A stretch of DNA of 64,000 nucleotides from Puniceicoccales bacterium (GTDB lineage Bacteria > Verrucomicrobiota > Verrucomicrobiia > Opitutales > UBA9783). Shown here piece by piece: positions 4,739-41,853 of the stretch. Positions within the stretch are counted from its first letter, which is position 1, and each line of letters opens with the position of its first letter. The stretch spans positions 4,716 to 68,715 of the forward strand of contig JAIRMU010000019.1 of assembly GCA_031258545.1 (NCBI GenBank), in the 5' to 3' direction. The position numbers were made by a program, and so were the translations under genes. The notes below the pieces were generated by a model. That model saw nothing but the letters and a program-made list of their open reading frames with translations, was not told where the DNA came from and made no database searches.

Positions 4739-5205
4739 TTACGCATGAGCTTCATTGAAACGATCGGCAATCTGTGCAACGTGATGTTCGATAACTTTTA
4801 TAATTTCGGCATAAATGTCGGATGCACCCTCATTGGCCCATTGCCGACTTAAGCGTTCTGCCAAAGGAATTATTTTACCTAAAAGTTCATCTAGCCGTTT
4901 TAGGATAAAATCCTTCCTAAATCCCGTAACGGCATGCAAATTCTCGAAGTACTTACGGCGGACATAACGGCAAAGGTAATTGCCCCAGGTAGCTTCATGG
5001 CCATTTTGTGCTTGGGTGCGAAAAGTGCATATAAGATCGTGTATATTAAATCATAAAATGGAGCTAACATTGCACATTTACCTTCATAAAGAATTGCAAA
5101 ATTTTTTGCGTGTGCGTCTCCATTACCAACTAGGAAGTTAAACATTAACATTTCCAAAAATTGTATCTTATCTGTCCCGGATACATCTTTTGAATATTTA
5201 CACCG
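4739..5205 (-). pseudogene. hipA: HipA toxin kinase C-terminal remnant, N-terminally deleted and frameshifted
   Basis: DKIQFLEMLMFNFLVGNGDAHAKNFAILY...LAPFYDL then KMAMKL; the HipA-like tail (GNYLCRYVRRKYFENLHAVTGFRKDFILKRLDELL...) continues in another frame after the G4 run at 4983-4986; upstream in-frame stop at 5305-5307. Confidence 0.8.
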
Positions 5206-30868: not shown

Positions 30869-33403
30869 TCACATTTCAGAAGAGATCAACAAGGTATGGG
30901 AGAGATCGGGCTGTAAATACGCTTTGGATCGCTCAAAAAATTCTTCCAACGATATATTATCGATAGCTTTTTCATAATTTAACCAGGCGTCTTGAGGTAA
31001 ATCAAACAATGCATTGATGCCGGCATAAAATGCCTTTTTGGCGATGGTTTGCAAACGAGTTTGCTGACTCACTTTAAGATGCGCTCGGCATAGATTGAAT
31101 TCTTCAGAAGATACCTGGTGATTTAGAACACGTTGCGTCGCTTTGAACATTTCTGCTTCAACCGTTTTCAAATGGGATGCTTGAGTACTCGCAAATAAAC
31201 ATAACATACCGCGACTTAATCCCGTTAAACGCGTGGCCCCAACCGTATAGGCCAAACCTAATTTCTCTCTTACTTCGATGACAAATTGGCTCGATAAACC
31301 ATTGAATAATTCTTCCAAATAATCGGCCACATAGTAGTCTTTTGAACATATGCCCGCCATTGGGTAAGCCTGGAAAACCATCGATTGCTCTTTGTCCAAT
31401 CGGCATACACGGTACCCGTCGGAAGTGAAAAAAATTTCATCGGACACCTTTTCGAAACCATTTTTAGAAATTCCACGACCTATAGGCTCCAATAACCTCA
31501 TTAATTCATCCGTAGGTAGCGGACTAACCGCCGATATAACACAATTGGAGCCAACAAAAATTTTTCTAAAATAATGCCAACAGTGCTCTAATTGCAGTGC
31601 TTTTACATTGTCATCAATACCATACTGACCTATGGCGTAGGGATGTTGCCCAAAAAATTGATGACGCATCTTTTTAAATCCCACATAAAATACGTCATCC
31701 ATCATCTCCCGAATGGAAGCCAATTGGGAAGCTTTTTCAATCTCGAATGTTTCCTCTTTAAACCGAGGTATACGCAGCGCTTCTCCCAATAACTGACATC
31801 CCATAGCCGTGTTTTGGGGCAAAGATTCAAACGCCAATCCTATGTGATTAATCCCCGTAAAACTATTAAACTGGCCTCCTATTGCGTCAACGGCTTCCGC
31901 AATTTCACATGCCGTACGATTTTCGGTATCCTTCATCAGTAGAGAAGCTACCAAATGCGAAATACCCCTTTGATGCACGGGTTCATACAAAGCACCCCCA
32001 AAACCGAGTACCTGTATGTGCGTTTTTGGAAAAGACGGATTATGCTGCATTACCAAACGGACTCCGTTGGATAATGTTGTCGATTCCACAGGATGCGTAC
32101 GTACCTCCGTAGATTTTTTTAAAAACCCTCTTTCCAGTGCTTTTGGCTCCAAAGATGCTTTGGTACAAGTTGCAGACTGCAAATATTTGCCCACAATCGC
32201 TTTTATGCTTTTCGCATCCAATTGTTTCAATTGTTTCAAATAGTGTCTCGAGTACTGCAAATCTCCCAAGCAAGTGTCGGCCCATCCTAGATGATGTGCC
32301 TGCCCCGACACCGTTTTTCGAGCATCTATTTCCGATATAATTGCTTGGTTCAGCGCCTTCTGCACATGCTTTGTTTTAATGCCTGCTTCTGCCATGCACT
32401 GCAAATTCTTCGATAAAAATTCCTCCACGCAAGCACGTTTCTCTCCGTCGCACACGTATTGTATCCAAAATAGCCCTTGATCAGCCATCCAAGTGGATAC
32501 ATCGATGGAATAAACGTATCTTAACTCTTCTCGCAACTTTTGATGCAAAAGTGAGCTGTCACCGCAACCCAATACATTGGATAAAACTTGCAACTTGGCC
32601 CCATCTTTGTGCCCCAGTCCTGGAATTTTAAATGCCAATGCTCCACGCACCAATTGATAATTGCCATAAAAACGCTCTACCCTTTCCGCCATTTGGAAGG
32701 GTTCTCGAGTGATCAAAACCGGTTGCAAACTTCTTGGCAAACATGCGGAAAAATAATGATTCACCTTTTCTTGAATCCACTCAAACGACAAATTACCCAC
32801 AATGACCAACGTTATGTTATTGACGGGATAGCGCTTGCGCCAGTATTCCATTAAATCTTCCCGCGTCAGTTGTTCAAAAATACTCTTAATGCCAATGATG
32901 GGGTATCGATACGGATGCTTACGAAACGCGTTTTCAAACACTACTTGATTGAGTCGATCATCCGGATCATCATTGCACATGCCGATCTCACGCAAAATTA
33001 CCTTCTTTTCCTTAAGCATTTCTTCCGATGGAAATGTGGGATGCAGCAGCATATCGCTTAAAATATCCAATCCCAATTCCATAGATTCCGATGAACCATC
33101 GTAAGTATAAACGGTCCTGTCAAATGATGTATAAGCATTGAGGCTGGCTCCCGAGGCTTGAGCTTCCGAAAAAATAGCCGCATACGTACGCCGCTCAGTT
33201 CCCTTAAAAACCATGTGTTCCACAAAATGAGAAATACCCGCACCTAAATATTTGTCTTCGTGAATGCTACCCGTCTTTACCCACGCTTGAATTGCAACCA
33301 AGCCGGTATGCTCAACGGGTAAAAAAATGACCTTGAGACCATTGGAAAGTGTAAAACAATAGGGCTGATAGGTTAAAAATTCTTCAAATAAACACATATC
33401 CAA
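30869..33403 (-). CDS. M16 family zinc peptidase (two-lobed, PqqL-like)
   Basis: TLSNGL, GS..E, GISHFVEHMVFKGT (HxxEH), NAYTS.D.T.Y, and a second degenerate M16 unit. Confidence 0.92.
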   Translation of the reverse strand: MDMCLFEEFLTYQPYCFTLSNGLKVIFLPVEHTGLVAIQAWVKTGSIHEDKYLGAGISHFVEHMVFKGTERRTYAAIFSEAQASGASLNAYTSFDRTVYTYDGSSESMELGLDILSDMLLHPTFPSEEMLKEKKVILREIGMCNDDPDDRLNQVVFENAFRKHPYRYPIIGIKSIFEQLTREDLMEYWRKRYPVNNITLVIVGNLSFEWIQEKVNHYFSACLPRSLQPVLITREPFQMAERVERFYGNYQLVRGALAFKIPGLGHKDGAKLQVLSNVLGCGDSSLLHQKLREELRYVYSIDVSTWMADQGLFWIQYVCDGEKRACVEEFLSKNLQCMAEAGIKTKHVQKALNQAIISEIDARKTVSGQAHHLGWADTCLGDLQYSRHYLKQLKQLDAKSIKAIVGKYLQSATCTKASLEPKALERGFLKKSTEVRTHPVESTTLSNGVRLVMQHNPSFPKTHIQVLGFGGALYEPVHQRGISHLVASLLMKDTENRTACEIAEAVDAIGGQFNSFTGINHIGLAFESLPQNTAMGCQLLGEALRIPRFKEETFEIEKASQLASIREMMDDVFYVGFKKMRHQFFGQHPYAIGQYGIDDNVKALQLEHCWHYFRKIFVGSNCVISAVSPLPTDELMRLLEPIGRGISKNGFEKVSDEIFFTSDGYRVCRLDKEQSMVFQAYPMAGICSKDYYVADYLEELFNGLSSQFVIEVREKLGLAYTVGATRLTGLSRGMLCLFASTQASHLKTVEAEMFKATQRVLNHQVSSEEFNLCRAHLKVSQQTRLQTIAKKAFYAGINALFDLPQDAWLNYEKAIDNISLEEFFERSKAYLQPDLSHTLLISSEM

Positions 33404-33464
33404 CTTATTTCATTGTCTCAGAAAAAGCCAGTACTGTAAAGTTGAAAAACCTCCTTTTATAATT

Positions 33465-33500
33465 CAAAAAATAAACCCTACGAGAATACGTAGGGTTTAT
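33465..33500 (-). terminator. Intrinsic terminator downstream of the zinc-knuckle gene
   Basis: Perfect 12-bp stem ATAAACCCTACG-N6-CGTAGGGTTTAT (33471-33500) followed by a T run on the minus strand. Confidence 0.8.
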
Positions 33501-33527
33501 AAATTTTGTAAACTTTAGTTACGTATT

Positions 33528-33932
33528 TTAGCAACCGAACATATGATCTTCTGAATGATCGGGATGATTCGGGCAGTCCGGCCTGTGATTTCCTCCTGAC
33601 TGACCACAATGGGGACATCTATAGCCAGGATTATTCGGGCAATGCGGTATATGTTCTCTTCCGAATTCTGTGTCCATCATGGGACAATAGGGACACTTAT
33701 AGTTAGGATCATTCTGGCAATCCGGCCTATGAGCGCCTCCTGACAGTTCACAATGAGGACACTTATAGTTAGGGCAATCCGGCTTATGATCGTCTGATGT
33801 AGAAGCAAAACAATAGGGACAAGGACGATCGAGATTATTCGGGCAAACACCTGCATCATGCCCTTCTTGACCACAATACGAACACATTACGGCCATTCCC
33901 GGCAGTGTTGTCATTAATTTAAATGCAATCAA
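33528..33932 (-). CDS. Cys/His-rich protein with five CCHC zinc-knuckle-like repeats
   Basis: CSYCGQEGHDAGVC (C-x2-C-x4-H-x4-C) plus four CP[YH]C-x6-10-H-x3-C units; has its own promoter and terminator; true start uncertain (see findings). Confidence 0.75.
   Translation of the reverse strand: MIAFKLMTTLPGMAVMCSYCGQEGHDAGVCPNNLDRPCPYCFASTSDDHKPDCPNYKCPHCELSGGAHRPDCQNDPNYKCPYCPMMDTEFGREHIPHCPNNPGYRCPHCGQSGGNHRPDCPNHPDHSEDHMFGC
33691..33773. repeat. Exact 17-nt direct repeat within the zinc-knuckle gene
   Basis: GGACACTTATAGTTAGG at 33691-33707 and 33757-33773 (66-nt period; encodes PNYKCP). Confidence 0.85.
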
Positions 33933-34032
33933 ATATATATTTTTTCATGTGGCTCGTTTTGTTACTTCTTTAATATTGGCAAGCTTTTTGTTAATCCTTT
34001 TTAATAAATTACTTCCACCAAACCTCAGTTTA

Positions 34033-34061
34033 ATGATAAGCTAAATGTTTGTTAAGTGCAA
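34033..34061 (-). promoter_or_regulatory. Putative sigma70 promoter of the zinc-knuckle gene
   Basis: TTGCAC-N17-TATCAT on the minus strand. Confidence 0.55.
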
Positions 34062-34226: not shown

Positions 34227-35684
34227 TCATTGAGATAAGAGCTCTCTCAAAAGGCGATCCACTTCATTGATCGGAACTTTTCCTTGCGTACGCTTTACGA
34301 CTTGCCCCTTTAATACGTTCAAAGCCTTTTCTTTTCCGGAACGAAACTCTTCGGCAGGTTTTGGGAAAGCGTCTATAATTTCCCCACACAGCATTTTCAA
34401 AGCATCCACGTCTACCGCAATTTCTAACCCTTTATCTTTCACAATCTTTTGGGGATCTTCGCCCGTCTTAAACATAGCCCCGAATACCTCTTTTGCGCTC
34501 TGTTTAGATATTACATTCGAATCCACCAATTCCACCAATGCGGCAACTTGACGAGGATCCATTTTCAAATTTTTCCAGGCTTGATGCATATCTTCCGTGG
34601 CAAGCTCCCTCAATAAATCGTTTGCAATCCAATTGGCAATACCCAGAGGATTTTTAGCATAAAAACTCAAAGCGGATTCAAAAAAATCGCTCAATCTTTT
34701 ATCGGGGCAAATGACGGAAGTCACCGTATAGGGCAATGGCAATGTCCGTAAGTAACGTTCCTGTTTGTCGAATGGCAACTCTGGCAAAATCTTTTTCTGA
34801 GCTTGAACATCTGCTTCCGATAAACAAATTGGACATAAATCTGGATCCGTAAAATAACGGTAATCATGGGCATCCTCTTTGGATCGCATGACAAAACTCT
34901 CGGATTTATCGGCATCCCAACGTCGCGTTTCCTGCACAATGGCTTTACCACATTCAATGGCCTGCAATTGTCGATTGACTTCATGTCGAACGCCGTTGCA
35001 CACACCTGAAATCGAATTCAAATTCTTCAACTCAACTTTGGTCCCCAAGCGGGTTGTTCCCTGAGGCCTTACACTAATGTTTGCATCGCACCGCAACTGC
35101 CCTTTTTCCATATCGCAATCGGAAGCATCCACGTACTGCAAATGCATAACTAAAGATTTTAAATAGGCAAAAACCTCTTCCGGAGAGTGCATATCGGGCT
35201 CGGATACAATTTCGATGAGCGGCGTACCCGCACGGTTGTAATCGATCCAAGATACTTGTCCCAAATGGGTGAGTTTACCCACATCTTCCTCCAAATGAAT
35301 TCGATTTAACGCAACTTTGCGATGTTTCCCCTGAATGTTTCTGGCGGGTCCTTCAAGCTCAATTTCGACATGTCCACCGCGACATAGCGGTTGATCGAAT
35401 TGGGAAATTTGATAATTTTTAGGGGCATCCGGATAAAAATAATTTTTACGATCCCACTTGCATTGACGTGCGATCTCGCAGCCAAATATCAATCCCACTT
35501 GCACCGTCTTTAAAACGGCCGCCCTATTGAGTACGGGCAAAGAACCCGGCAATCCCAAAACAATTTCATCCACCAAGGTATTCGGTTCGACACCATAACG
35601 ATAAGGTACTCGCGTAAACAACTTCGACTGCGTCTTTAGTTGCGCATGAACTTCTAACCCAATAACAGCCTCGTATTGCGTCAT
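34227..35684 (-). CDS. gatB: Asp/Glu-tRNA amidotransferase subunit B
   Basis: YEAVIGLEVHAQL, RKNYFYPD.PKNYQISQ, HLEEDVGK, DYNRAGTPLIEIVSEPD, YRYF.DPDL. Confidence 0.98.
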   Translation of the reverse strand: MTQYEAVIGLEVHAQLKTQSKLFTRVPYRYGVEPNTLVDEIVLGLPGSLPVLNRAAVLKTVQVGLIFGCEIARQCKWDRKNYFYPDAPKNYQISQFDQPLCRGGHVEIELEGPARNIQGKHRKVALNRIHLEEDVGKLTHLGQVSWIDYNRAGTPLIEIVSEPDMHSPEEVFAYLKSLVMHLQYVDASDCDMEKGQLRCDANISVRPQGTTRLGTKVELKNLNSISGVCNGVRHEVNRQLQAIECGKAIVQETRRWDADKSESFVMRSKEDAHDYRYFTDPDLCPICLSEADVQAQKKILPELPFDKQERYLRTLPLPYTVTSVICPDKRLSDFFESALSFYAKNPLGIANWIANDLLRELATEDMHQAWKNLKMDPRQVAALVELVDSNVISKQSAKEVFGAMFKTGEDPQKIVKDKGLEIAVDVDALKMLCGEIIDAFPKPAEEFRSGKEKALNVLKGQVVKRTQGKVPINEVDRLLRELLSQ

Positions 35685-39946: not shown

Positions 39947-40459
39947 TTACCAACGAATACGAACGCACCCATGTTGGCCGGCTAAACGCTCCTTTACCTT
40001 GTAATCTCTTTGGCCACTACCTCCATCTCCCAGCTGACCTAACATGTCAACATGTTGGCCGGTACAATGACTCGCACAAGCTCTTGTTGCCGGTACGCCC
40101 ATCGCCCCTCCACCGCAATTAATTTCCAAAGAATGAATATGGACCGTCGTTGCCTCACCTGCAGTTAACTCCGAGGCTTGCCCAACATAAATGGAAACAA
40201 TACCTCCACTTTGTACGCCCTCGATTTTCTCCGTCCTAAAAACACCCGAACCTCCACCGTTTCCACTGACGTTGAAATCAGCCAAATGCTGTACATCGAG
40301 ATAGATTCTCATGTTTTGCTGCGATTTTGTCCTCGCATCCATCGTTGATATCCAACTGTTTTCATTTATCCGATCAGCCCCATGCTCCACAACGTTATGA
40401 GAAAAAGAAACACCATATGTATAAACATAGCTCTTATCCCTTTCATCATTGTATATCAT
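39947..40459 (-). CDS. C-terminal part of a split glycine-rich-domain protein
   Basis: GNGGGSG..R......G..VSIYVG and GDGGSG...GQHGCVRIRW; lies in the -1 frame relative to the upstream ORF. Confidence 0.55.
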   Translation of the reverse strand: MIYNDERDKSYVYTYGVSFSHNVVEHGADRINENSWISTMDARTKSQQNMRIYLDVQHLADFNVSGNGGGSGVFRTEKIEGVQSGGIVSIYVGQASELTAGEATTVHIHSLEINCGGGAMGVPATRACASHCTGQHVDMLGQLGDGGSGQRDYKVKERLAGQHGCVRIRW

Positions 40460-40461
40460 AT

Positions 40462-41853
40462 TTAAAAAAAATCTCTTGTTTCTTTATCTTTAAGTTCTAC
40501 GCATTGATTAAATCGAGGTAGGGTATGAGGGTTATCAGTTCTATAAATTAAATGTGCATTGCTGGTCGCAGGATACTTACTCATACGGCCGGTAACATTG
40601 GTGACGCGCGCCGGACCTGTCACACGTATGTGCGTTTTACTCCATATCCATCCTCTCCACGAATGGTATTCTAGGTTAAGATCACTCGTCTGCTCCACCG
40701 GGGCACCCCAATCTCGGTAAGACAAAGCGGGACTACCGCTTCCGCCCGCACCGATCGCTTCAATCGTAATGGTATGTACGCCTTCCGGAATCATCCAAAA
40801 ATGCTTCCCGGGTTGATCAAAAACGATCTGCCCATGATTTTGTTCGGCAACCATATCGGTTACCTCACCCACATCCTCATCCATTGAAATTTTAAGATCT
40901 TCCAACAAATGATCGTATTCTTCACTGTATTTGTGCAATTTCTCTAGTTCGCACGCAACATTTCGCTCGCGCATGGAAACGTACAACCAAAGCGTAAAAA
41001 AAGAATCTACATCGATGCAAAAATGCCTGTCTTTGCAATTACACCAAGTGACATGGGGAGAAAACAAATTTAAATAAGGTTCGCAGGCAGGGTCCAAATG
41101 CTGCATTAATTTTACAACGTTACTCGCCACATTATCAAATTCTGATAACCGTCTAAAGGCATCCCACGCCGCATGACTTATTTTAAGTTTGTCCGAAAAC
41201 CTGCAAGGAACGAGGATAAAAGTGGAAGGTTTACAGGTTAAAGGAGAAGACCACGTATCGGTTGGATGCAAAGATAAATCACCGCACTTATCCACGAGTA
41301 AATCGTTAAAAAAATGTGTCGTATAACTCAAAATATTTTGGAAATCGGCTGTAGACAATACTGAAAGCGCTTCCATTAAATGCTGTCGATGCCCCCGTAT
41401 CGGTTCAATAAAATACCGATTCCAAATATCGTGCACTTTTTGGACATCTTTTTGCGCAATATCCAATGGAAGACCCACTAAACAATCCTCGTTATCCTGA
41501 TAGGCATAGTGTTGTAGCACGCAGTCCGGTTGCTTCATGAGATGCGGTAACGTGTGCTGAAAATAGGGATATCCCCACACATAATTGCCAATACTACCAC
41601 ACACCCAATAACTCCCAAACTGGATGGCAAATGGAGGAACGGATTTATATTTTCGGTACAAATTTAAAACATGCGGCAATTCTTCTGCAGAAAAAGATTT
41701 CCTACAAAAAATTTCTGCAGGAATATACAAACAACCTTTATCTTTTTGATTATTTGAATCTTTTAAAACAAAAGTCGGACAATGGGGAAATGCAAACAGC
41801 ATTTCGGTAGCCAAACACAAAGCTACAGTAAAATATTTACTGTATTTGAACAT
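40462..41853 (-). CDS. Orphan protein with signal-peptide-like N-terminus; N-terminal part of a split glycine-rich-domain protein
   Basis: MFKYSKYFTVALCLATEMLFA leader; FDQPGKHFWMIPEGVHTITIEAIGAGGSG near the C-terminus; stop falls within a T8 run. Confidence 0.6.
   Translation of the reverse strand: MFKYSKYFTVALCLATEMLFAFPHCPTFVLKDSNNQKDKGCLYIPAEIFCRKSFSAEELPHVLNLYRKYKSVPPFAIQFGSYWVCGSIGNYVWGYPYFQHTLPHLMKQPDCVLQHYAYQDNEDCLVGLPLDIAQKDVQKVHDIWNRYFIEPIRGHRQHLMEALSVLSTADFQNILSYTTHFFNDLLVDKCGDLSLHPTDTWSSPLTCKPSTFILVPCRFSDKLKISHAAWDAFRRLSEFDNVASNVVKLMQHLDPACEPYLNLFSPHVTWCNCKDRHFCIDVDSFFTLWLYVSMRERNVACELEKLHKYSEEYDHLLEDLKISMDEDVGEVTDMVAEQNHGQIVFDQPGKHFWMIPEGVHTITIEAIGAGGSGSPALSYRDWGAPVEQTSDLNLEYHSWRGWIWSKTHIRVTGPARVTNVTGRMSKYPATSNAHLIYRTDNPHTLPRFNQCVELKDKETRDFF

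Follow-up and report, generated by a model that had tools for sequence, protein, structure and literature searches.

The knuckle gene and its repeat units

The stretch of DNA analysed here, in the following called the window, comprises 64,000 nucleotides (nt) of a contig from a Puniceicoccales bacterium (JAIRMU010000019.1, positions 4,716 to 68,715; assembly GCA_031258545.1) and carries a small gene for a protein consisting almost entirely of CCHC zinc knuckles between gatB and a gene encoding an M16 peptidase. The long open reading frame (ORF) lies on the minus strand at 33528-33932, where it runs from TTG 33932 to the stop codon at 33528-33530. It encodes 134 amino acids (aa) plus stop, including a signal-peptide remnant, five CCHC units, and a His-rich tail. 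An alternative in-frame start at ATG 33914 leads to a protein of 128 aa, which is the version predicted by the gene caller (P0001). An initial annotation, which was made from the letters of the sequence alone, had delimited the gene at 33528-33948. This span has to be corrected, since ATG 33948 is out of frame and the 421 nt are not a multiple of 3. ATG 33948 is located 16 nt upstream of TTG 33932 and encodes just MKKYIFDCI followed by a stop codon, with ATG 33914 sitting 4 nt past the stop of this short upstream ORF. The window product opens with LIAFKLMTTLPGMAVM, continues with the five units and ends with the tail PNHPDHSEDHMFGC; its composition includes 16 Cys, 11 His, and 18 Pro.

All five CCHC units listed in the initial annotation were found in this ORF with exactly the spacings given there. 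Knuckle 1 (CSYCGQEGHDAGVC, 33843-33884, minus strand as for all units) has the spacing C-x2-C-x4-H-x4-C and is the best conserved unit in the family. It is followed by knuckle 2 (CPYCFASTSDDHKPDC, 33774-33821) with C-x2-C-x7-H-x3-C, knuckle 3 (CPHCELSGGAHRPDC, 33717-33761) with C-x2-C-x6-H-x3-C, knuckle 4 (CPYCPMMDTEFGREHIPHC, 33639-33695) with C-x2-C-x10-H-x3-C, and knuckle 5 (CPHCGQSGGNHRPDC, 33573-33617), again with C-x2-C-x6-H-x3-C. In each knuckle, a rubredoxin-type CPxC(G) turn forms the beginning and an H-x-P-x-C-P turn the end. The His-rich tail occupies 33531-33572 (minus strand), and its last 12 residues are seen in the window copy only, while the relatives end directly after DCPN. 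The five-unit pattern is not a by-product of amino acid composition because 20,000 shuffles of the mature sequence never exceeded three units: no unit was obtained 15,978 times (80% of the shuffles), one unit 3,835 times, two units 184 times, and three units 3 times, so that five were never reached.

At the DNA level, the array consists of diverged direct repeats with periods of 57-78 nt. Among these is the exact 17-nt repeat with a period of 66 nt that had been pointed out in the initial annotation (GGACACTTATAGTTAGG on the plus strand, at 33691-33707 and 33757-33773). Tandem Repeats Finder reported zero arrays for the gene, since the units have diverged too far and differ from each other by insertions and deletions. 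An origin of the tandem CCHC units by internal duplication is supported by these repeats.

Loss of the ancestral start in the window copy

Compared with five homologous loci, the window carries a 2-bp deletion after ATGAAAAAATA (about 33937). The five other loci have the sequence ATGAAAAAATATCT(A/T)T..., from which a single frame leads through (M)KKYL(Y/C)L(I/A/V)AF(K/T)LMATL(P/S)(G/V)(M/L)A(V/M)(V/I/T)C. The deletion separates the conserved N-terminus MKKYLYLIAFKLMATLPxMA from the knuckle array, and the first six or so residues of this N-terminus are gone from the window copy. In addition, an ATG farther upstream that is used in relatives is ACG in the window. Comparison with the loci of the relatives identifies 33919-33948 (minus strand) as the out-of-frame remnant of the ancestral start. 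The in-frame segment at 33891-33932 (minus strand; LIAFKLMTTLPGMA) was heuristically assigned as a remnant of the h- and c-regions of a signal peptide with a predicted signal peptidase I site after G-M-A. A programmed +1 frameshift that would rescue the start was considered as well and was rejected, with no known slippery or stall context being present.

Family members, synteny, and distribution

The initial annotation had proposed to trace the distribution of homologs, and this search returned close relatives only. In 5.8 billion protein clusters, the family comprises six members, namely the window protein, P0002 (annotated as a hypothetical protein of a Puniceicoccales metagenome-assembled genome, MAG), P0003, P0004, P0007, and P0009, the last being a fragment of 37 aa. 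The loci of P0002-P0004 have the order pheT-gatC-gatA-gatB-[gene]-M16 peptidase, followed by genes for UDG, a FabV-type enoyl reductase, and ferritin, and the gene for P0007 directly follows gatB on a contig of 1.6 kb, which stops before the next gene. In the window, the knuckle gene lies between gatB (34227-35684) and an M16 peptidase gene, as described in the initial annotation; the latter encodes a double M16 peptidase (30869-33403). This synteny is conserved in the relatives. At the nearest outgroup locus (L001), unrelated genes follow gatB and the knuckle gene is absent. No further loci turned up when the family alignment was used to scan metagenome contigs of JGI and viral contigs of IMG/VR. 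Among species-representative genomes, the best match to the GatB protein of the window has 71% identity (UBA1183), and MAGs from termite gut and other Puniceicoccales MAGs reach 51-58%. By its gatB, the window belongs to the Verrucomicrobiota, class Opitutia, in the vicinity of the Puniceicoccales. The knuckle gene is restricted to one genus-level clade of Puniceicoccales.

Constraint on the ligand framework and rapid change elsewhere

Between the window and the three syntenic genomes, the knuckle proteins are 48-52% identical, compared with 92-94% for GatB and about 90% for the M16 peptidase. Nonsynonymous divergence (dN) calculated according to Nei-Gojobori is 0.23-0.35 for the knuckle gene versus 0.02-0.05 for the GatB and M16 genes and is, thus, about 10 times higher. 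The ratio of nonsynonymous to synonymous divergence (dN/dS) is 0.26-0.39 for the knuckle gene and 0.05-0.10 for the GatB and M16 genes. The invariant alignment columns are nearly all C, H, or P, with the addition of knuckle 1 and of the N-terminus, which changes at the background rate. The mature part is about 50% identical, with its Cys positions kept. Synteny in four related loci together with the dN/dS values supports that this is a real protein-coding gene. The dN/dS values clearly below 1 and the near-exclusive invariance of Cys, His, and Pro show purifying selection on the ligand framework, whereas the tenfold higher dN and the differences in unit number show rapid change elsewhere, with units being gained and lost. 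In P0004, one unit has been lost and one is degenerate. The apparent dS in units 2-5 is inflated to 1-2 versus about 0.45, which is probably due to the alignment of repeats that are not strict orthologs. Apart from the ligand framework, the constraint is probably weak.

Putative export signal and acidic composition

In the homologs, the array is preceded by an N-terminus of the form M..KKYLYLIAFKLMATLP(G/V)(M/L)AV.C, with putative cleavage between the A and the following V. By inspection, this N-terminus has a positive n-region with Lys-Lys near the start, a hydrophobic core, Pro at about -5, and small residues at -3 and -1. Such Sec-type features are found by inspection in P0002-P0004, P0007, and P0009, while the n-region of the window copy is out of frame. 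Judged by established rules for signal peptides, the homologs would carry a conserved Sec-type N-terminal signal, and this putative signal sequence is intact in 5 of 7 copies. A bacterial lipoprotein was also considered and was rejected on motif grounds, as there is no lipobox ([LVI][ASTVI][GAS]C) in front of the first Cys. This Cys is preceded by A-V-(V/I/M), and none of G, A, or S occurs at position -1.

The predicted isoelectric point (pI) of the mature proteins is 5.3-6.1 in the four closest members, which contain as few as one Lys or Arg, and a near-neutral 7.2 in the more distant P0007. For the mature part of the window protein it is 5.7, with 16 Asp and Glu residues versus 8 Lys and Arg residues. 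The mean net charge per knuckle unit is -0.9 in the window family, -1.8 in the bacterial protein P0010, and -4.4 in secreted proteins of Clostridia, compared with +0.9 in eukaryote-type matches and +1.9 in endonuclease-associated (phage-type) arrays. This acidic composition is the main argument against RNA binding.

Comparison with known zinc-knuckle systems

In textbooks, CCHC knuckles appear as nucleic-acid binders that eukaryotes and retroelements use inside the cell. The initial annotation had described knuckle 1 as a canonical retroviral-type knuckle and had suggested a HMMER search against zf-CCHC (PF00098). The likeness to PF00098 knuckles of the retroviral nucleocapsid, CNBP, and Lin28 type holds for the spacing of knuckle 1, for the glycines in CxxCGxxGH, and for the tandem arrangement, but it does not extend to the curated Pfam threshold. 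The whole protein has no PF00098 match at E<=10 and no Pfam family above cut-off, and the isolated knuckle 1 scores 13.3 bits with a cut-off of 20.8. Knuckles of the homologs score 10.4-13.8 bits, and the last knuckle of P0007 comes closest with 20.4 bits. Scores of the window family for PF14392 are 9.5-15.8 bits versus a cut-off of 27. In contrast to the PF00098 proteins, whose basic surface carries aromatic residues and binds single-stranded nucleic acid, the window family is acidic by composition, units 2-5 are spaced x6-10/x3, and the proteins are bacterial with a putative signal peptide ahead of the array in the relatives. Searches in other databases gave just one sub-threshold CxxC family in NCBIfam, a single PHROGs match of the window protein that is not meaningful (phrog_9083, E=0.0097) and none to phrog_7051, and only chance-level matches in a sequence search of the PDB (a C2H2 consensus finger with E=0.14, and RNase A).

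A profile search with the family over 1.84 billion representatives yielded 48 matches of four kinds. Eukaryote-type zinc-knuckle proteins, which were retrieved via knuckle 1, constitute the first kind and include P0005, which passes PF00098 and PF13696. The second kind consists of long proteins that combine phage-type homing-endonuclease- or Mom-like N-termini with C-terminal C-x2-C-x6-H-x3-C arrays (phrog_7051). The third kind is P0010, a bacterial protein of 718 aa with an acidic array, and the fourth is P0022, which has a clear signal peptide and acidic CxxCGxxGHDDDxCP units.

P0022 belongs to a family in Clostridia (P0022, P0051, P0052, and P0056) with a signal peptide, an N-terminal domain, and acidic arrays that pass zf-CCHC_4 and zf-CCHC_6. 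The arrays are composed of very acidic CxxCGxxGHDDDxCPN zinc knuckles, and the proteins also have poly-Asp tails. In P0066, a further Clostridia protein, an RsgI_N anti-sigma domain and a transmembrane helix are combined with three acidic knuckles at the C-terminus. In RsgI proteins, the C-terminal part is located outside the membrane (PMC10328401, PMC6852018). The predicted location of the P0066 knuckles on this outer part and of those of the other Clostridia proteins behind signal peptides implies that acidic CCHC knuckles occur outside the cytoplasm in bacteria. Like these proteins, which have a signal peptide or a transmembrane helix ahead of the knuckles, the window family is bacterial and has acidic tandem units, in its case behind a putative signal peptide, and the consensus CxxCGxxGHDxxxCP(N/Q) fits knuckle 1 of the window protein and of P0002-P0004 (hhalign probability 91.5%). 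Unlike the window family, the Clostridia proteins belong to another phylum, have the extra N-terminal domain and the poly-Asp tails, contain x4/x4 units only, and pass the Pfam cut-offs.

The proteins of the second kind (P0006, P0012, P0013, P0017, P0018, P0025, and others) are large, with homing-endonuclease- or Mom-like N-terminal regions followed by up to about 20 basic C-x2-C-x6-H-x3-C units, and the proteins belong to no Pfam family. A tblastn search of P0013 against GenBank phages gave no match. The phrog_7051-type arrays, represented by P0006, P0012, P0013, and P0018, resemble the window protein in having equal unit spacing, in closely matching local motifs (for example, CPHCGTPAGGKHKKDCPNF versus CPHCGQSGGNHRPDCPNH in the window), and in an hhalign probability of 97.5%, which was obtained for P0013 and by hhalign only. 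They differ in being strongly basic (+1.9 per unit), in having no signal peptide, and in being fused to nuclease-like domains.

SmtA/BmtA-type metallothioneins are comparable in being small, rich in Cys and His, fast-evolving outside the ligands, and plausibly able to bind multiple metals. No sequence match of the window protein to metallothionein families was found in Pfam or NCBIfam. In contrast to metallothioneins, the window family is modular with one site per unit instead of a metal-thiolate cluster, and it is predicted to be exported while SmtA is cytoplasmic. The similarities to the knuckle proteins described above should be read as indicating the same kind of unit, with common descent left unproven. 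In the literature searched, no direct precedent for extracellular bacterial zinc knuckles was found, and searches on the samples and on Puniceicoccales symbionts brought up no habitat. CCHC knuckles themselves are well known, but neither Pfam, NCBIfam, and PHROGs nor the literature searched describe a stand-alone, signal-bearing, acidic, and fast-diversifying array from Verrucomicrobia.

Paralogous cassettes and lesions

The genome encoding P0002 contains two more knuckle cassettes between pheT and a gene for an unknown protein of 632 aa (locus L086). The first cassette (3222-4655 of L086) is a 477-aa ORF with at least 21 CCHC units and a basic pI of about 8.2, in which both ancestral start ATGs are changed to ATA. 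Its frame opens at MAEVC, that is, with the last residues of the former signal peptide. The 477-aa paralog has no Pfam match and was not retrieved by the protein searches. The second cassette (4992-5178) encodes the two-knuckle protein P0009 with a 1-nt frameshift inside knuckle 1, and it retains the upstream block and the terminator found at the main locus. Both cassettes appear to have arisen by segmental duplication because they are flanked by duplicated pieces of the 3' end of the 632-aa gene and of the 5' end of the M16 gene. The corresponding 2.2-kb segment is absent from the window. The N-terminus of the 632-aa protein itself is signal-like, and its C-terminus is rich in Gly.

The window homolog of the 632-aa gene (39947-41853, minus strand) has lost 1 nt in a T-run near 40460 and is thereby split into parts of 463 and 170 aa. 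All housekeeping genes tested in the window, namely those for ribosomal proteins, EF-G, a Mur ligase, FolE/FolB, PGK, TIM, PheT, and the M16 peptidase, are intact, which makes a generally error-ridden assembly unlikely. Accordingly, the lesions in the window look biological rather than caused by poor assembly.

Interpretation and alternative explanations

The family is tentatively interpreted here as exported, acidic, modular Cys3His metal-binding proteins, of which the copy in this genome might be retargeted or decaying. In the relatives, the protein would be exported across the inner membrane by its Sec-type signal, with predicted cleavage after x-M/L-A, and each unit would chelate one Zn2+ or another thiophilic metal ion through its Cys3His ligands. 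The extracytoplasmic array might then serve in metal binding and buffering or as a bead string for binding partners, and would not be a nucleic-acid binder. The window product, if made from TTG 33932 or, by re-initiation, from ATG 33914, would have no working export signal, and with this signal broken the window copy would either be retargeted to the cytoplasm or be starting to decay.

The initial annotation had suggested an exported effector that binds host RNA or metal. Its export component agrees with the putative Sec-type signal of the homologs, but this signal is disrupted in the window itself, and nothing points to a host or to any secretion system other than Sec. The acidic charge argues against RNA binding, and metal binding is the better-supported half of that suggestion. 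Several observations weigh against an exported metal-binding protein. A Lys residue is located within the hydrophobic core in most members (Thr in P0007), and Cys-based Zn sites are unusual in the oxidising periplasm. All homology rests on short cysteine-biased motifs, and the closest profile match of units 2-5 is to the basic endonuclease-like arrays, which presumably bind DNA. In two copies, the window gene and the 477-aa paralog, the signal is lost and yet a long frame remains open, so that a cytoplasmic role is possible. The structural modelling proposed in the initial annotation was run with no metal included, and the resulting AlphaFold2 model from a four-sequence alignment is uninformative (predicted local distance difference test, pLDDT, 44; predicted template modelling score, pTM, 0.20).

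Alternatively, the protein might be a cytoplasmic, CNBP/Lin28/nucleocapsid-like knuckle protein that binds single-stranded nucleic acid, with or without delivery into a host. Such a function would fit the C-x2-C-x4-H-x4-C spacing of knuckle 1 with G at the usual places, the retrieval of eukaryotic zf-CCHC proteins by the family profile, the hhalign match of units 2-5 to the phage-type homing-endonuclease-like arrays (97.5%), and the lack of a signal peptide in the window copy and in the basic 477-aa paralog (pI about 8.2). It is nevertheless unlikely, given the sub-threshold PF00098 score (13.3 versus 20.8 bits, with the whole protein unmatched), the intact putative signal sequence in 5 of the 7 copies, and unit charges of -0.9 compared with +0.9 to +1.9 in nucleic-acid-type arrays; neither host association nor an effector secretion system was seen. 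A small but serious chance is given to the window gene being a recently inactivated pseudogene of a dispensable accessory family with no functional product. The 2-bp deletion that removes the start and the n-region, the change of the upstream ATG to ACG, the lesions in other copies (the frameshift in P0009 and the ATA codons of the large paralog), and the 1-nt deletion in the accessory gene at 39947-41853 amid intact housekeeping genes all point in this direction. However, the 134-codon frame is open with all 20 ligand residues intact, and dN/dS on the window branch is not above that among the other copies. Moreover, TTG and ATG codons are available in frame just downstream, the ATG 4 nt after the stop of the short ORF would allow re-initiation, and a sequencing error is still a possible cause of the 2-bp deletion.

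The combination of an N-terminus evolving at the background rate with a mature part that is about 50% identical but keeps its Cys positions would also be expected for a secreted disulfide-rich mini-protein of the bacteriocin or toxin type, in which a hypervariable mature part is built on a fixed Cys framework. This is improbable for a protein whose units each contain three Cys and a conserved His in the classic CPxCG ... H-x3-C arrangement of metal knuckles, whose Cys totals are odd in some members, and which has no immunity or export genes nearby. The M16 gene, which is located immediately downstream in all 4 of the 4 loci that extend past the knuckle gene and of which a 5' fragment was taken along by the duplicated cassettes, could suggest a precursor with a leader and a Cys-rich core, similar to those of ribosomally synthesised and post-translationally modified peptides (RiPPs), that is processed by this peptidase. 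However, none of the loci encodes a radical-SAM, MNIO, cyclodehydratase (YcaO), or lanthionine (LanM) enzyme within 6 kb, the gene is set apart from the M16 gene by a strong terminator as well as by a separate, conserved promoter-like region, and the paralogs have no intact M16 gene after them, which renders a RiPP-like precursor highly improbable. A small multihaem c-type cytochrome was considered because of the signal-peptide-like N-terminus and of CxxCH motifs in relatives, of which P0003 has four, P0002 has two, and P0004 and P0007 have a single one each. For the window copy, this is effectively refuted on motif grounds: its protein contains zero CxxCH, the residues following CxxC being G, F, E, P, and G, and the family conserves the distal H-x3-C without exception but not the His after CxxC.

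A more speculative and rather unlikely extension is that these proteins form, together with the Clostridia proteins and the RsgI-type sensor, an unrecognised class of zinc-knuckle modules that anaerobic or host-associated bacteria use outside the cytoplasm. Such modules might function in extracellular metal sensing or capture or in binding a cationic partner on the surface of a host, of prey, or of a phage, and the family would diversify quickly by unit shuffling, by copy number (5 to more than 20 units), and by on/off lesions at the start. A signal-bearing acidic array in bacteria would, along with the Clostridia examples, extend the knuckle fold to the cell exterior and suggest a novel kind of module for metal binding or sensing outside the cell. 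Fast evolution, unit turnover, and start lesions could mark an arms-race or contingency locus in Verrucomicrobia; little follows if the gene is merely a decaying orphan.

Transcription signals and minor features of the locus

The terminator with a 12-bp stem that had been noticed in the initial annotation is present at 33471-33500 (minus strand) as an intrinsic terminator with a 6-nt loop and a T-run. Across the three aligned relatives, the loop varies but the stem does not. The same annotation had regarded the gene as a real transcription unit with its own promoter. A coding gene with a terminator is indeed present, but no terminator was found between gatB and the knuckle gene and, therefore, its separateness is not established; it may be the last gene of a pheT-gatCAB transcript. 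The promoter-like motif proposed at 34033-34061 (TTGCAC-17-TATCAT) is not confirmed, as it agrees with the consensus at 8 of 12 positions, falls below the scan threshold, and is only partly conserved. The scan itself returned TTAACA-17-TAAACT (9 of 12 positions), and the 5 promoter-like matches in the region are not clearly above the 2.8 +/- 1.5 expected from shuffled sequences.

A match to the Rfam family His_leader at 33468-33570 (minus strand) reaches 27.5 bits with a gathering score of 49 (E=0.036). It is judged to be a chance match produced by the His codons at the 3' end of the gene and the terminator, and an attenuator was rejected because the ORF has 134 codons under purifying selection. 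The gap between the terminator and the M16 gene (about 33404-33445, minus strand) contains a conserved promoter-like sequence of the M16 gene's own, TTTACA-17-(TG)GACAAT, and a 2-codon mini-ORF, ATG AAA TAA, both of which are kept in the three syntenic loci. The weak motif discussed above and a TATTAA/TATAAA box (34001-34006) belong to a conserved upstream region on the other side of the gene (33949-34061, minus strand). This region also includes, upstream of the start, a block of some 60 nt that the relatives and the paralog cassettes share almost letter for letter. This block could be a regulatory leader. In the window (33949-34010), it holds a direct repeat of AAAAAGATTAACA, of which the L088 locus has a single copy, without the roughly 30 nt in between.

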